Source of the DNA: Candidatus Staskawiczbacteria bacterium
Lineage (GTDB): Bacteria; Patescibacteriota; Minisyncoccia; Minisyncoccales; Staskawiczbacteraceae
DNA: 48,931 bases
Reading direction: 5' to 3'
Assembly (NCBI GenBank): GCA_049513595.1
Contig: JBEKVX010000001.1
Span: 1-48,931 of the forward strand
The notes below the pieces were generated by a model that searched no databases, was not told the DNA's origin, and worked only from the letters and a program-made list of their open reading frames with translations. The position numbers were made by a program, and so were the translations under genes. This document shows, in pieces, positions 529 to 15,299 of this stretch; within the stretch, counting starts at the first letter, position 1; each line of letters opens with the position of its first letter.

Positions 529-552
529 TTTGTCGTCGCCTTTTTTATTATG

Positions 553-569
553 TGATATAATAATTTATA
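553..569 (+). promoter_or_regulatory. Extended -10 promoter TGATATAAT ending 7 nt before ATG 569 (leaderless or near-leaderless mRNA predicted)
   Basis: TGATATAAT lies at 553-561 and the ATG at 569. The same roughly 20-nt block recurs in front of the arsR-like gene at 4384-4404. Confidence 0.5.
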
Positions 570-1765
570 TGGAAAATAAATCAGAAAATAAAAAGAATAA
601 AAATGTTTTTTATGTCGGCCTTTTAAGTTTTTTTGGCGGGATATCACAGGATATTTTTTCTCCAATTCTGCCGATTTATCTAACTTCAGTTTTGGGATTT
701 GATAAAACCATTGTTGGCGTTGCTGAAGGAATTGTCTCCGCCAGCGTTAGTATCTTCAGAATTGTTGCGGGATTTTTATCTGACAAATTTAAAAAACAAA
801 AACCGATAATTTTTCTGGGATATTTTTTATCAATGGTCTCGCGACCTTTATTGGTTTTTTTTACATCAGCGGGAGCTGTTTTGGGTTTGCGGCTTCTTGA
901 CGGCGCTGGAAAAGGAATTAAAGATACGCCCAAAGATGTTTTGGTTGCCGGCTCGTCTGAAAAAAATGTGCGCGGAAAGAGTTTTGGTATTGCAAGAATG
1001 CTTGATACTATGGGCTCTGTCGCCGGACCATTAATTTTATTTTTTCTTCTTTGGGTTTTTCAAAACAGCAGTACGCTTTACCATGATATTTTACTTTTTA
1101 CAGCGGTTCCTTTAATAATTACTCTTTTATTAATATTTAAACTTAAAGAACTTCCAAAATCACAACTTACAAAAATTGAAGTTCCTCAGGGACCCAAAGG
1201 GTACCCCGGAAAATTTCCGGCATCATTTTATATTTTTATTGCAATAGTAATTATTTTTACTTTGGGAAATTCATCGGACGCATTTTTAATACTTCGCGCA
1301 AAAGGACTCGGGATATCTTTACTAGAAATTCCGCTTGTGATTGCGCTTTTTAATTTAATTTATGCAGGAGCGGCAATCCCATTCGGTTCTCTGTCCGACA
1401 AAATCGGAAGAATTCCCACTCTGGTTATCGGATGGCTGGCCTTTGCAGTTGTATATTTAGGTTTTGCAATTACCACAAGCGCGCTTTCAGTTTGGTTTTT
1501 ATATTGTCTTTATGGAATTTATTATGCCACAAGCGAAGGCGTTTCAAGAGCGTTGCTGGCAGACCTGGTAAATCCAGACCACAGGGGAAGAGCATACGGA
1601 ATTTTTGGAATGGCGGTCGGCTTAACAACTTTGCCGGCGAGCTTTTTTGCGGGCTTTTTGTGGGATAAATTTGGAGCGCCAGTTCCTTTTTATTTCGGTG
1701 CCTCAATGGCATTGCTGGCGTGCATCGCTTTGTTTATCTATTCCAAAAAATTTCTAAAAAAATAA
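569..1765 (+). CDS. MFS transporter (about 12 TM)
   Basis: Long hydrophobic ORF. I chose the internal ATG at 569 (MENKSENKKNK...) because the 530 start overlaps the promoter block. TM-rich throughout, with a D/K-rich loop typical of MFS. Confidence 0.8.
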   Translation: MENKSENKKNKNVFYVGLLSFFGGISQDIFSPILPIYLTSVLGFDKTIVGVAEGIVSASVSIFRIVAGFLSDKFKKQKPIIFLGYFLSMVSRPLLVFFTSAGAVLGLRLLDGAGKGIKDTPKDVLVAGSSEKNVRGKSFGIARMLDTMGSVAGPLILFFLLWVFQNSSTLYHDILLFTAVPLIITLLLIFKLKELPKSQLTKIEVPQGPKGYPGKFPASFYIFIAIVIIFTLGNSSDAFLILRAKGLGISLLEIPLVIALFNLIYAGAAIPFGSLSDKIGRIPTLVIGWLAFAVVYLGFAITTSALSVWFLYCLYGIYYATSEGVSRALLADLVNPDHRGRAYGIFGMAVGLTTLPASFFAGFLWDKFGAPVPFYFGASMALLACIALFIYSKKFLKK

Positions 1766-1782
1766 AATTAAAAAAAGTTTTG

Positions 1783-1803
1783 AATCCGCGAAAGCGGATT
1801 TTT
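1783..1803 (+). terminator. Intrinsic terminator
   Basis: Hairpin aatccgc-gaaa-gcggatt followed by a T run. Confidence 0.7.
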
Positions 1804-1814
1804 AGTTATAGACA

Positions 1815-1843
1815 TTGACACATTTATTTAAAAAATATATCAT
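1815..1843 (+). promoter_or_regulatory. Sigma70-type promoter (TTGACA-17-TATCAT)
   Basis: TTGACA at 1815-1820, a 17-nt AT-rich spacer, then TATCAT at 1838-1843. It points into the GC-rich segment. Confidence 0.6.
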
Positions 1844-1851
1844 TTAATAAC

Positions 1852-2286
1852 GTCTGGCTCTGTTGCGGAATGGTTCTGCGACAAGTTGACCCAGCCAGAT
1901 TGTGCCGGTTTTCCTTTTTGGGAGGATTTGCCATGAAGCGCCGGTTGCACCTGGACATGAAGATTTCGGCCACCACGAAGAAGAAGACGACTGCGGTGCA
2001 CGCGCTGCTCTGACCAAGATCCGGGCCGGGCGGCGTGTGAAGATGCCGTAGGCACCTAGTGTGCCACGGCACGCGGACTACGACGGGAAGACATCTGTCC
2101 ACCGGCAGGTGTCAAAATTACTTCACTAGCAGCTAGCAGCCCCGGTGGATCGGACTGGCTGGCCCGGTGCGGAGGGGCTCCAGATGCGAGCATGAGTGGA
2201 ACGCCGCTTGTCTCAGGGCGCGGGAACTCATCTCCTTCTTGGAGCCCCTCTCGCACTTGTTTGTTCTTATCGCACATTGAAATCGG
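1852..2286 (+). ncRNA. Candidate structured GC-rich leader/ncRNA co-transcribed with the downstream tRNA-like gene
   Basis: No ORF of 60 aa or more on the promoter strand. There is a perfect 10-bp long-range helix, gaggggctcc (2172-2181) with ggagcccctc (2241-2250). Several local hairpins are present, for example gacatctg/caggtgtc. The only coding candidate is a 26-aa ORF at 1933-2013 behind GGGAGGA. Confidence 0.35.
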
Positions 2287-2362
2287 CGGGGCGTAGCTCA
2301 GCGGCTAGAGTGCCATCACCGTAGAAAGGTGGAGGTCGTGGGTTCGAGTCCTACCGCCCCGA
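2287..2362 (+). tRNA. tRNA-like gene with 3 extra nt in the anticodon arm (identity undetermined)
   Basis: Acceptor CGGGGCG/CGCCCCG, D arm TAGCTCAGCGGCTAGAGT and T arm GTGGG-TTCGAGT-CCTAC are all present. Twenty nt sit where 17 are expected. They fold either as CCATC/GGTGG with a 10-nt loop, or as TCACC/GGTGG with loop GTAGAAA plus 3 unpaired nt. Confidence 0.5.
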
Positions 2363-2370
2363 TTTAGGTC

Positions 2371-2396
2371 AACGGCAGACATAAGTGCCGTTTTTT
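2371..2396 (+). terminator. Intrinsic terminator
   Basis: aacggca-gacataag-tgccgtt followed by a T run. Confidence 0.7.
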
Positions 2397-2397
2397 G

Positions 2398-2425
2398 TTG
2401 TAAAAATTTTGAAATATGATATTAT
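2398..2425 (+). promoter_or_regulatory. Promoter P1 (TTGTAA-16-TATTAT)
   Basis: Closely similar to P2 at 2992-3019 and to the tRNA-Ala promoter at 14664-14691. All are followed by AAAAAT(A/T)A. Confidence 0.55.
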
Positions 2426-2440
2426 AAAAATTAAATTGTT

Positions 2441-2508
2441 GGGGTCGTAAGCTGAATAGGAACAGCACCCGAAAGGGAGGTATGTGGGTTCAAATCCTGC
2501 CGACTCCA
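2441..2508 (+). ncRNA. tRNA-like RNA lacking a normal anticodon arm, with a G3:U70 acceptor stem
   Basis: Acceptor GGGGTCG/CGACTCC (G3:T70), D arm GCTG-AATAGGAA-CAGC and T arm GTGGG-TTCAAAT-CCTGC are present. The anticodon arm is replaced by the mini-hairpin CCC-GAAA-GGG. Total length is 68 nt. Confidence 0.45.
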
Positions 2509-2566
2509 CTTGCCAGAATTTACTGGTAAACTTTGTTCGTTGACTTTTAAGGCAGGGAGGTGTCTC

Positions 2567-2908
2567 GTGCTAGACGTAAAATTCATGATAGACAGAAAAC
2601 TACTAGATGAGCTCTGCGCGGAGTCAGCCACGCTGGAGCTTACCGATGGCGACCTAATTGATTCATCGCATAGAGAACGGCTTGGCGGCAGAATAAACGA
2701 CTTGAGAACCGAGCTCCTGACCAGAATGGGCGGTGGCACAATTGAGCCCGGTGATGAATTGGAACTGCAGGGATACGTAGATAGCGTTGTGCGGTCAGTG
2801 AACAGTGGCAAGAAGCAGCCAGCAGACGTGATCAAAAACCAGCGTAATCAGATGGCCAAGATATTGGTCAAAGCATCGCGGATCTCGTTGGCGAAAGCAC
2901 TCTCGTAA
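2567..2908 (+). CDS. Hypothetical small acidic protein (113 aa), paralogous N-terminus to ORF 3352-3549
   Basis: GTG start 6 nt after GGAGGTGTCTC (2556-2566). The start 2510 listed in the track would overlap the tRNA-like gene. Confidence 0.5.
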   Translation: MLDVKFMIDRKLLDELCAESATLELTDGDLIDSSHRERLGGRINDLRTELLTRMGGGTIEPGDELELQGYVDSVVRSVNSGKKQPADVIKNQRNQMAKILVKASRISLAKALS

Positions 2909-2941
2909 ACCGTACATCACGGGCCAATCAAAGGGCGCAAA

Positions 2942-2983
2942 GCGTCAGGGACCTTGGAGATCGTCTTCGGGGTCTGTTTTTTT
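2942..2983 (+). terminator. Conserved 3' element plus intrinsic terminator
   Basis: gcgtcagggaccttg is identical to 3560-3574. The stem gaccttggag/cttcggggtc needs G:U pairs, so it forms only in plus-strand RNA. A T run follows. Confidence 0.6.
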
Positions 2984-2991
2984 ACAAAATA

Positions 2992-3019
2992 TTGCAAAAT
3001 TTTTGAAAAGTAATATCAT
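2992..3019 (+). promoter_or_regulatory. Promoter P2 (TTGCAA-16-TATCAT)
   Basis: Paralogous to P1. Confidence 0.55.
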
Positions 3020-3039
3020 AAAAATAATCTGACACATCT

Positions 3040-3211
3040 GGAACTACGTGCCACGTAGTTCCGAACAAGAAAGGAGGTGTGTCATGACGGGGAAGCTGTG
3101 GTGTTGCTCGGCCATCAACACGTCGTAGGCACAAGAAGATCGCCGAATTGCGTGTAGTGTCCGAGCGGAGCCACTGGGCAGGAAGCGGAGCGTGTCTGCT
3201 CTGCCCAGTGG
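3040..3211 (+). promoter_or_regulatory. Structured 5' leader of tRNA 3217-3290 containing a 14-codon mini-ORF
   Basis: Perfect 10-bp hairpin at 3040-3062. Mini-ORF at 3084-3128 (MTGKLWCCSAINTS) behind AGGAGGTGTGTC. Perfect 11-bp hairpin ccactgggcag/ctgcccagtgg at 3171-3211. Confidence 0.4.
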
Positions 3212-3216
3212 CCAAC

Positions 3217-3290
3217 GGAGACGTAGCTCAGTTGGGAGAGCGCCTGGCGATTAAACCAGGAGGTCGTAGGTTCAACTCCTATCGTCTCCA
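3217..3290 (+). tRNA. tRNA with an 8-nt anticodon loop (CGAUUAAA); identity undetermined
   Basis: Perfect acceptor GGAGACG/CGTCTCC, D arm GCTC-AGTTGGGA-GAGC, anticodon stem CCTGG/CCAGG and T arm GTAGG-TTCAACT-CCTAT. It is 74 nt to the discriminator, so one nt is extra in the anticodon loop (3248-3255). Confidence 0.65.
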
Positions 3291-3351
3291 TTTTAGCCAG
3301 ACCGTCACTGGCGATCAGCTCATTGTTCTCCTTATTTCGTGGAGGTGTCTC

Positions 3352-3549
3352 ATGAACTTCGCAGGCATGACAGACGAAAATCTCCAATCGTGGCTAGATG
3401 ACCTTACAGAAGAAAGAGATGTGCTCGATGAGCGCAAATTTCCTTGGGCCGCACTTTCTTATGACCAACAAATCGCCGCGCTAGAGCAAGAACTCCAAGG
3501 GAGGAAATCTCCTGAGAGCTCGACACTTCAAGCGACTGCGACTGCGTAA
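3352..3549 (+). CDS. Hypothetical small acidic protein (65 aa)
   Basis: ATG 6 nt after GGAGGTGTCTC (3341-3351). The longer track ORF from 3148 runs through the tRNA and is rejected. Confidence 0.5.
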   Translation: MNFAGMTDENLQSWLDDLTEERDVLDERKFPWAALSYDQQIAALEQELQGRKSPESSTLQATATA

Positions 3550-3559
3550 GGCGCGATTC

Positions 3560-3606
3560 GCGTCAGGGACCTTGAAGTTGAAGTTCAGCTTCGGGTCTAT
3601 TTTTTT
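3560..3606 (+). terminator. Conserved 3' element plus intrinsic terminator (paralog of 2942-2983)
   Basis: gcgtcagggaccttg, then stem gaccttgaag/cttcgggtc, then a T run. Confidence 0.6.
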
Positions 3607-3635
3607 GTTTTTTTAGAATTGCGCATAGAAACCAC

Positions 3636-3664
3636 TTGACTTTTGGTTTTTTTAGGTCTAAAAT
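3636..3664 (+). promoter_or_regulatory. Promoter (TTGACT-17-TAAAAT) upstream of grpE
   Basis: Hexamers at 3636-3641 and 3659-3664. Confidence 0.5.
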
Positions 3665-3807
3665 ATAGAATATAAATAAAAATTTAAAGCAAAATATGCC
3701 CTTTACGAAACGAGGCAAATATTATTACAGCCCAAGCGGCAGAAAATTTACAAAAAAACAAGTAGCTTTATATTACGCCACTCAGGGATTTAGGAAAAAA
3801 CCAAAAA

Positions 3808-14898: not shown

Positions 14899-14927
14899 TT
14901 GACAAGGGTTTTATATTGGAATATACT
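14899..14927 (+). promoter_or_regulatory. Promoter (TTGACA-17-TATACT)
   Basis: Hexamers at 14899-14904 and 14922-14927. Confidence 0.6.
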
Positions 14928-14933
14928 AATAAA

Positions 14934-15299
14934 AAAAGTGAAGTTCGAAGGTCTGGGGAAGAGGGTAACACCTCAACCCCAAGCAACAAGGAGGGTGCAT
15001 TATGCAAACGCCGCCGGGCTGAGTCCTCGTGTCTGTGGCAATACAGACACAGCAGCTCTCGGGCAAGCGTGTGCCTTTCGTTGTGTCTAACGGATCCATT
15101 GCGAGTCCGCAAGTCCTAGAAAAGTCCTAGCCAGAACCATCCTAGGTCGATTCCAGAGAACTCGGATAAAACAATGTAGAGCATAGACCCAGACGCAACG
15201 TCGGCGCATAAGACCAGCCCACCAGTCGTTTACAGCGACAACACACTCTTCATGGGGGCGGTCGGTCTCTAAACAAGATCGCCGCTCCCGATTTTTTTT
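14934..15299 (+). ncRNA. Candidate GC-rich ncRNA of about 365 nt (unknown class)
   Basis: It is bounded by a consensus promoter and by a strong terminator (15254-15299) whose stem needs G:U pairs, so it forms only in plus-strand RNA. It has no credible ORF, only a 6-codon ORF (MQTPPG) behind AAGGAGGGTG. Multiple hairpins are present, for example gtgtctgt/acagacac. Confidence 0.4.

Follow-up and report, generated by a model that had tools for sequence, protein, structure and literature searches.

The window examined here, a stretch of 48,931 nucleotides (nt), is contig C1 (JBEKVX010000001.1) of a Candidatus Staskawiczbacteria genome (assembly GCA_049513595.1) that comprises 765 kb in 51 contigs and is 98% complete. 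Its size, with relatives at 0.3-1.0 Mb, is typical of Patescibacteria, the candidate phyla radiation (CPR). Near the left end of the window, between an MFS transporter gene and further small modules, lies a candidate transcription unit of ~0.55 kb, measured from promoter to terminator, in which a GC-rich leader runs into a tRNA-shaped gene (Table 1). The leader stretch between promoter and tRNA-shaped gene is 437 nt long. GC content is 0.60-0.64 from ~1850 to ~2260, against 0.384 for the genome, with sharp composition changes at 1850 and 2260, and this GC block is the biggest block of the 765-kb genome that is both GC-rich and poor in open reading frames (ORFs). GC content varies as a mosaic over the whole genome, where 64 segments, mostly accessory genes, are GC-rich, and a truncated GC-rich half-MFS ORF stands at the window start. 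A sequence-only reading of this DNA had described a consensus promoter firing into a GC-rich stretch, which continues into a tRNA-shaped gene and then a terminator as a single unit; each of these elements was found again by independent scans, the promoter with 11 of 12 consensus matches and the tRNA-shaped gene with 48.5 bits. Promoter-like sites are abundant in the region (6 vs 1.6 expected), and none occurs in 1843-2398, so the tRNA-like gene depends on the promoter upstream of the leader.

The gene at 2287-2362, which we call M1-type, appears to be a structurally maintained tRNA look-alike that does not decode. It has the cloverleaf of a decoding tRNA, with a 7-bp acceptor stem (7/7 pairs), canonical D and T arms including G18G19, a fully paired T stem (5/5) and a TTCRANY T loop. 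Its anticodon stem, CCAUC/GGUGG, encloses a 10-nt loop, ACCGUAGAAA; Infernal places these 10 nt where a 7-nt anticodon loop belongs, in agreement with the three extra anticodon-arm nucleotides reported earlier. A 7-nt loop with U33 and a purine at position 37, kept among orthologs as in decoding tRNAs, is lacking. C1-G72 and A73 are as in bacterial tRNA-Pro, and the T arm is that of tRNA-Pro, while the D arm is not Pro-like. The acceptor end is shared with the genome's own three tRNA-Pro genes, and a 28-nt match of 93% identity links the 3' end to a region of the relative G016 that holds tRNA-Pro(CGG). Proline identity in bacteria depends on A73, G72, G35 and G36, and the alanine determinant is G3.U70 (PMC9976931). 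The M1-type gene has A73 and G72, G35-G36 are absent or incomplete, and G3-C70 stands in place of G3.U70; anticodon and identity elements do not agree.

Two other identities for this gene were tried and rejected. ARAGORN labels it Ser(aga), a mis-call that combines a serine anticodon with a Pro-like acceptor end and a variable loop of only 5 nt; the genome's real tRNA-Ser genes measure 85-87 nt and carry the long variable arm. A tmRNA or permuted tmRNA is rejected on G3-C70, and because the genome already has a standard tmRNA (516 nt, 92.9 bits) beside smpB on contig C18.

M1-type orthologs occur in two congeners only, G012 and G020, and a pattern search finds the 5' half in 2/79 family genomes. 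Across the three orthologs, acceptor and T-stem pairs are standard in 35/36 cases, with compensatory changes at 6-67 (C-G or U-A) and at 50-64 and 51-63 (three pair types each), whereas the anticodon loops measure 10, 7 and 5 nt and all differ in sequence. Stems that are kept beside a loop that varies in length and sequence form the pattern expected under selection for tRNA shape, not for decoding. In G020, the ortholog lies 10 nt upstream of an alanine-type look-alike, both under one promoter. The genome under study encodes an RNase P RNA (C2:41006-41358, 121.6 bits), which could cut at the tRNA 5' end.

Comparison with the congeners suggests how the GC block came to stand in front of this gene. 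A TTGACA-17-TATTAT promoter precedes the orthologous gene by 30 nt in G012 and by 20 nt in G020; in the window, the corresponding distance from promoter to look-alike is 443 nt. The AT-rich spacer just before the tRNA-shaped gene, 2258-2271 (ttgtttgttcttat), resembles the G012 leader (ttttttgttctttttat), both following a U-rich 'ttgtt(t)gttctt(t)tat' pattern. Taken together, the short congener distances and the spacer likeness mark ~1852-2258 as extra DNA, and the GC block looks like a lineage-specific insertion of ~400 nt. No second copy of the tRNA 5' end, which would be an insertion scar, was found near 1850; the block thus lacks the duplicated tRNA end at the far border that characterizes elements that target tRNA genes or replace gene ends. 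The unit as a whole stands between the two copies of a weak, AT-rich direct repeat of 12 nt (1773-1784 / 2402-2413), which may be chance. Four metagenome relatives (L074:7366-7545, L075:2404-2583, L090:2550-2729 and L084:10590-10778) show another arrangement at other tRNAs: a copy of the first 13 nt of the tRNA gene stands ~110-120 nt ahead of it, with a GC-rich block and a new promoter after the copy, an arrangement that looks like a small insertion replacing the 5' end.

Table 1. Features of the leader-look-alike unit, its orthologs and its neighbours. Positions are those of the window unless a locus is named; MFE, minimum free energy; SD, Shine-Dalgarno.
Feature	Position	Strand	Evidence and details
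Sigma-70-type promoter TTGACA-17-TATCAT	1815-1843	+	11/12 matches; transcription predicted to start near 1850
5'-terminal transcript hairpin (predicted)	1852-1890	+	MFE folds; 10-bp core 1861-1870 with 1874-1883
Multi-branched domain (predicted)	1891-2162	+	single-sequence prediction; closing long-range helix CCAGCCAG (1891-1898) with CUGGCUGG (2155-2162)
G.U-rich hairpin GGUUUUCCU/GGGAGGAUU occluding the SD (predicted)	1907-1928	+	whole-leader MFE; helix 1907-1915 with 1920-1928
26-codon ORF encoding MKRRLHLDMKISATTKKKTTAVHALL, only coding candidate	1933-2013	+	TGA stop
92-nt hairpin 2166-2257, then UUGUUUGUUCUUAU (2258-2271) (predicted)	2166-2272	+	folding; hairpin -56 kcal/mol
M1-type tRNA look-alike, apparently non-decoding	2287-2362	+	Rfam tRNA 48.5 bits, gathering score 29
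Intrinsic terminator, right border of unit	2371-2398	+	terminator scan and folding; hairpin 2371-2392 and T-run
M1-type ortholog in G012	L044 5031-5169		68-nt D-loop insert, 7-nt loop ACUUGGA (C at position 33)
M1-type ortholog in G020	L148	-	Rfam tRNA 47.4 bits, 5-nt loop UUGGC
Upstream MFS transporter gene	530-1765		Pfam MFS_1, E 2.5e-41
Terminator hairpin of the MFS gene, left border of unit	1782-1801	+	terminator scan
Module 2	2398-2985	+	promoter 2398-2437, tRNA look-alike 2441-2508, ORF 2567-2908 (Y), terminator 2949-2975
Module 3	2992-3600	+	promoter 2992-3019, 5' hairpin, SD and 14-codon mini-ORF 3084-3128, hairpin, tRNA look-alike 3217-3290, ORF 3352-3549, terminator 3571-3595

The leader has no relative in any collection searched, ~470 related genomes among them. 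Rfam was scanned at gathering scores over the whole window and at E<=10 over 1700-3400; the permissive search returned only tRNA matches and noise, with no GOLLD, ROOL, OLE, HEARO, raiA, T-box or RNase P, so the suggestion that a large ornate RNA class might lie here did not hold up. Membership in a known RNA family is rejected, as nothing beyond tRNA reaches gathering scores in the window. There is no second copy of the leader in its own genome. When 1846-2400 was compared by BLAST with 40 relatives, the tRNA part alone found matches, and these were ordinary tRNAs; for the leader by itself, 400 genomes of the order yielded no more than matches of 17-48 nt (E 0.003-0.1). About half of these fall on the Shine-Dalgarno (SD) region, and those inspected lie in unrelated contexts; the recurrent 20-27-nt matches to this region occur at about chance frequency. 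Nothing resembling the leader is present in 60 metagenome loci syntenic for the MFS gene (up to ~80% protein identity). Phage and plasmid collections gave no leader match, only tRNA parts matching ordinary tRNAs, and in IMG/VR, scanned with the 10-bp helix pair as a pattern, the single match was an unrelated palindrome. With no leader homolog in these collections, a conserved structured RNA with covariation, as the earlier reading had envisaged, cannot be shown. The literature searched contained no paper joining tRNA-like RNAs or GC-rich non-coding RNAs (ncRNAs) with Patescibacteria or CPR.

A separate short likeness concerns the translation start region. In L123 (G209:C1, ~567383-567410, minus strand), a membrane peptide of 49 aa is encoded in a small promoter-to-terminator unit whose start region (UUUUCUCUUUUUGGGAAGGAUUUGCCAUAUG) shares 93% identity with window 1909-1934 across 28 aligned nt. 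The match takes in the design of the SD-occluding hairpin; chance is possible given the number of genomes searched.

The leader is predicted to fold strongly, as had been proposed. At 441 nt, the leader has a predicted folding energy of -185.6 kcal/mol (z = -3.3), and 0/100 shuffled sequences are as stable. In the single-sequence minimum free energy (MFE) prediction, the 5' hairpin is followed by a multi-branched domain that holds the mini-ORF and several 10-12-bp hairpins, and then by the 92-nt hairpin. The core of this last hairpin is the helix described earlier as a perfect 10-bp pairing of 2172-2181 with 2241-2250; the helix is present, although it is really an inverted repeat of 11 bp, 2172-2182 with 2240-2250. 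With the tract that follows it, 2166-2272 would form a terminator- or attenuator-like end to the GC block, 15 nt before the tRNA look-alike.

Coding potential in the leader is confined to the mini-ORF at 1933-2013, in line with the initial view that this 26-aa frame is the only coding candidate and that no ORF of at least 60 aa lies on this strand. An SD, GGGAGGA (1920-1926), ends 6 nt ahead of its ATG, and its three-base periodicity is marked (z = 6.3), partly from AAG repeats. Beyond it, 2014-2286 lacks such periodicity (z = 0.8 vs 8-16 in real genes). Over the whole block, GC is enriched at the third frame position (0.69). The longest ORFs on the + strand of the stretch reach 47-49 aa, and each of the three + frames is interrupted by stops and unlike protein in character. 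Neither of the two longest antisense ORFs (92 and 73 aa) matches Pfam, and a word index of 5.8 billion proteins yielded no candidate for them. No significant match came from BLASTP against the full ORF set of the fetched loci, where the mini-ORF peptide has no relative either. The protein homolog that would have betrayed a frameshifted pseudogene thus did not turn up in Pfam, the 5.8 billion proteins or the fetched-locus ORFs. We reject a recognisable pseudogene on this absence of matches, on the non-protein-like + frames and on the lack of periodicity in 2014-2286.

The order of these parts recurs elsewhere with unrelated sequence. Modelled as described, the block would contain every part of a stand-alone cassette: a 5' hairpin, an occluded SD, a mini-ORF, a folded tail and a hairpin with a U-tract. 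Module 3 of the window has the same layout, with a 14-codon ORF, a hairpin and a tRNA look-alike, as does G015 (L054), with a 16-codon ORF, a hairpin with a U-run and a tRNA look-alike, and the metagenome locus L072, with a 5-codon ORF. The layout is also found without a tRNA in the window at 14899-15299 and in L050, L056 and L059. The term 'GC-rich mini-ORF RNA cassette' is used here for units of no conserved sequence that lie in variable intergenic spots and consist of their own consensus promoter, one tiny ORF with a strong SD, a folded GC-rich tail and a strong terminator. The unit at 14899-15299 is a GC-rich promoter-to-terminator stretch with a strong SD and a 6-codon ORF (MQTPPG); it adjoins tRNA-Ala(GGC) and shares the architecture of the leader without sequence similarity.

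The wider locus lies between the MFS gene and grpE, and it appears to be a fast-changing spot that is filled in relatives by other non-decoding tRNA look-alikes. Within the genus, the MFS-grpE spacer ranges from ~50 nt (G014) to 2.5 kb and usually holds a short hrcA-like gene, often with GC-rich modules that differ from genome to genome and each carry their own promoter, strong SD, small or tiny ORF and terminator. Most relatives (L046, L053, L062, L047 and others) have an hrcA-like gene of 135-177 aa between the MFS gene and grpE. The genome under study has a three-module island at 1766-3807 instead, and no hrcA-like gene was found in this 98%-complete genome with the relatives' protein as query. 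The stretch 1800-3600 consists of three tandem modules, each with an abnormal tRNA-shaped gene (beginning at 2287, 2441 and 3217). The third look-alike, 3217-3290, scores 60.4 bits and has an 8-nt anticodon loop, CGAUUAAA; a 65-aa orphan ORF (3352-3549) follows it. The SD and terminator of module 3 resemble those of module 2. A further pair occurs in another genus at L138:1308-1522 (G438), where two tRNA look-alikes stand under one promoter between the MFS and hrcA-like genes; the first has 82 nt and an extended anticodon region, the second is a 113-nt alanine-type RNA, and the pair mirrors those of G020 and the window.

The look-alike of module 2 represents a more widespread type, here called M2-type. 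The gene at 2441-2508 is anticodon-less and alanine-type, with G3.U70, A73 and the anticodon arm reduced to CCC-GAAA-GGG, and it carries the full bacterial alanine identity set as listed in PMC9976931. M2-type genes occur once per genome in 15/79 family genomes from 7 genera (in relatives, L042, L052, L054, L058, L065, L072 and L132-L147). G2-C71, G3.U70, G4-C69 and A73 are invariant in 17/17 sequences; pair 5-68 covaries (U-A in 8, C-G in 8), and only 4/204 stem cells are non-standard. The middle part varies from 10 nt, giving a 42-nt minihelix (G420/L132), to >100 nt, with GAAA- or UUCG-capped stubs between these extremes. Where flanks are visible, the gene stands shortly before hrcA-like or grpE genes, where it anchors the hot spot, and in most such genomes one or both of two small proteins, X and Y, are encoded behind it (X/Y loci: L136:1563-2089, L133:1570-2134, L145, L135, L141 and L147). 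Anticodon-less alanine-type look-alikes were not found described for CPR bacteria in the literature searched.

Protein X has ~75 aa and the motif YIFxYDD...GRFASNPELSF, and AlphaFold2 models it as a beta-hairpin with two helices (predicted local distance difference test, pLDDT, 85). Protein Y has ~100 aa, includes the window ORF 2567-2908 and is predicted to be helical, with a poor model (pLDDT 65). X, Y and the 65-aa ORF match no Pfam, PHROG or PADLOC family. The X model has no Foldseek match in the PDB at E<=0.001 (best VIA-align Z 4.9), and a profile search with Y reached 53 representative clusters only. A FemAB-family transferase, of an aminoacyl-tRNA-dependent kind, is encoded in this genome at contig C5:11759-12745; though unlinked to the locus, it could make use of an alanine-charged non-decoding look-alike.

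We tentatively favour, as an account that could well be correct, the reading of the unit as an accessory, lineage-specific composite of an older tRNA look-alike and an inserted mini-ORF cassette that brings it under attenuator-like control. The older part would be the proline-type non-decoding look-alike, one of several tRNA-shaped RNAs found in this genus directly ahead of hrcA-like or grpE heat-shock genes, and a GC block of ~400 nt (~1852-2258) would have been placed between it and the TTGACA-17-TATCAT promoter. Transcription would start near 1850 and a ribosome would load on the mini-ORF. Many transcripts would probably end or pause at 2166-2272, leaving an RNA of ~420 nt, and read-through would continue to the 2371-2392 terminator. 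RNase P could then cut the read-through transcript at 2287 into a folded leader RNA and a 76-nt tRNA-shaped RNA, such that the look-alike would be made only from read-through and the ~420-nt folded RNA would be a by-product or co-product. The most likely consequence of the insertion is that it puts the look-alike under transcription and translation control by the leader, in the style of an attenuator. The layout agrees with this, with an SD-led leader ORF (1933-2013) and a hairpin with U-tract (from 2166-2257) before the gene. Antisense pairing between leader and look-alikes is rejected: duplex energies of the leader with the three tRNA look-alikes equal those of shuffled sequences, and no complementarity of at least 9 nt exists.

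Several observations weigh against this composite. The transcription start, the termination at 2166-2272 and the RNase P cleavage are all inferred from the DNA. The complementary strand of the leader folds nearly as well (z = -2.85), a similarity which indicates that the stability comes mainly from inverted repeats and GC content and provides no evidence for a strand-specific RNA. As a single sequence, the leader shows neither fold nor ORF under selection, and it could be neutral inserted DNA. In the whole-leader MFE structure, no alternative antiterminator pairing that overlaps the ORF was identified; the ORF region is predicted to pair with 2121-2147 and not with the terminal hairpin. The mini-ORF codons show no run apart from Lys/Thr and no bias to a sensed amino acid, and with neither antiterminator nor codon bias it is the layout that carries the attenuator reading. 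The block has no terminal repeats that we could find and no clear target-site duplication, and the data fit equally a promoter at 1815-1843 that was resident and one that arrived with the block. Finally, the unit has every feature by which mini-ORF cassettes are recognized here, and that grouping rests on architecture, not homology.

These points open the way to other explanations, of which a trans-acting structured ncRNA of a new class is unlikely but deserves attention. The look-alike would then be an RNase P/RNase Z handle that sets the 3' end of a 437-nt leader RNA, a part that tRNAs within or beside GOLLD and ROOL RNAs may also play. GC enrichment in an AT-rich genome, the strong promoter, the folding z of -3.3, the long perfect helices and the lack of coding signal outside the mini-ORF would all suit such an RNA, as would the presence of RNase P RNA and the recurrence of the layout beside tRNA look-alikes. 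Structured RNAs that have a function usually show conservation within a genus or beyond, however, whereas this one has no Rfam match at E<=10 and no homolog anywhere searched, both congeners with the orthologous look-alike lack the block, the antisense strand folds almost equally, and GC-richness in this genome mostly marks accessory protein genes, not RNA genes. It is improbable, too, that the unit is an mRNA for a functional, basic peptide of 26 residues with a long structured 3' untranslated region, in which the look-alike would act as a 3' stabiliser or processing site. The strong SD, its ideal spacing and the periodicity of z = 6.3 speak for translation, and neighbouring cassettes encode short basic peptides (the 28-residue MRRMVRRLAGAPRRNRLRRKKYTKRRVK in L050, and MKKALQRRHRAKTLDSLLNNSL in L044); yet an (AAG)n run accounts for most of the periodicity, a hairpin sequesters the SD, and a search of related loci found no homologous peptide. 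The mini-ORFs of analogous leaders, at 5-16 codons and unrelated, favour 'throw-away' ORFs over a peptide mRNA. More ambitious is the idea that leader and look-alike form one undescribed device, with a translation-sensing, fast-evolving GC-rich leader that gates or matures the tRNA-shaped RNA, which would act with the neighbouring alanine-accepting, minihelix-like RNAs and X/Y in stress or protein quality control linked to hrcA-grpE-dnaK; we regard it as decidedly improbable.

The block may instead be neutral foreign DNA, a decayed GC-rich gene or element in a recombination hot spot that left the look-alike as a silenced relic. This has the same low probability as the peptide mRNA. An orphan block in a GC-mosaic genome of 64 GC-rich segments, a truncated half-MFS ORF at the window start, a third-position GC of 0.69 along the block and a strong hairpin with U-tract that could block expression of the look-alike speak for it. 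Against it, the six-frame ORFs have no Pfam match and no homolog in 5.8 billion proteins, the + frames all carry stops and look non-protein-like, the ordered layout matches cassettes that look functional, and the stems of the supposed relic are perfect (acceptor 7/7, T 5/5), better than those of the G012 ortholog. The chances are slim that 2287-2362 acts in decoding through an expanded anticodon loop, such as a frameshift or unusual-codon suppressor, with the leader as a long 5' precursor. An alternative register would yield a 7-nt loop, GUAGAAA, with U33 and A37 on an 8-bp anticodon stem, and the neighbour at 3217-3290 has a loop of 8 nt, the size found in quadruplet decoders. Homology supports the register with the 10-nt loop, however; the ortholog loops of 10, 7 and 5 nt leave no conserved anticodon, and an AGA anticodon with unmodified A34, the absence of a long variable arm and a Pro acceptor are mutually inconsistent (PMC9976931). 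An assembly chimera, with GC-rich reads joined into an AT-rich contig, could produce the sharp composition shifts at 1850 and 2260 but is scarcely credible, since host-style AT-rich promoters and terminators alternate regularly with GC blocks, separately assembled relatives and metagenomes show the same mosaic, and the look-alike downstream is orthologous to those of the congeners.

Whichever explanation applies, a tiny CPR genome spends ~1.8 kb ahead of its chaperone genes on three strongly promoted tRNA-look-alike units, and in annotation 2287-2362 should not carry the name tRNA-Ser(AGA). If the leader does gate or mature the look-alike, the unit would represent a new arrangement, an attenuator-like leader ahead of a tRNA mimic, and an entry point to the function of GC-rich mini-ORF RNAs, which are absent from Rfam and the literature searched. 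If the block is inserted junk, the tRNA-look-alike locus would still be an example of a hot spot where streamlined genomes acquire and lose accessory DNA.

The composite can be compared with several known systems. Leader-peptide attenuators of the trpL, pheL and hisL type likewise carry, within the leader, a short ORF with an SD and, ahead of the gene, a hairpin with U-tract, here at 2166-2272, and the hairpin of the analogous G015 leader has a clean U-run. They differ in that the controlled gene here would be a tRNA-shaped RNA and not a biosynthetic operon, that no antiterminator pairing and no run of regulatory codons was found, and that the leader is 3-4 times the classical length and not conserved. 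GOLLD and ROOL RNAs (RF01998, RF03087), which often lie beside or contain tRNAs, resemble the unit as large, strongly folded, GC-rich non-coding stretches of AT-rich genomes, joined to a tRNA-shaped gene in accessory DNA. Unlike these RNAs of ~580-800 nt, the leader measures 437 nt, has no covariance-model match at E<=10, carries a strong SD and ORF, and is a single orphan sequence. Phage morons also have their own promoter and terminator, a foreign composition and a place between resident features in one lineage only; here, in contrast, the setting is a bacterial chromosome with no phage genes around and no phage match, and the unit carries a folded RNA and its tiny ORF in place of a protein gene.

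Two further groups compare with the tRNA-shaped part. In tRNA-linked co-transcripts such as E. coli thrU-tyrU-glyT-thrT-tufB and MALAT1-mascRNA, a tRNA module is joined to another RNA, and cuts at the border would set the end of the partner; in the present unit, the module is apparently non-decoding, the partner is an orphan leader and the processing is predicted. The M1-type gene lacks an adjoining partner enzyme and has G3-C70 and a proline-like end, which set it apart from the tRNA-like domain of tmRNA, from staphylococcal non-proteinogenic tRNA-Gly and from the anticodon-less alanine-type RNAs. It shares with them the combination that characterizes non-decoding look-alikes, in which the acceptor, D and T arms are intact and backed by compensatory changes while the anticodon loop is unusable.

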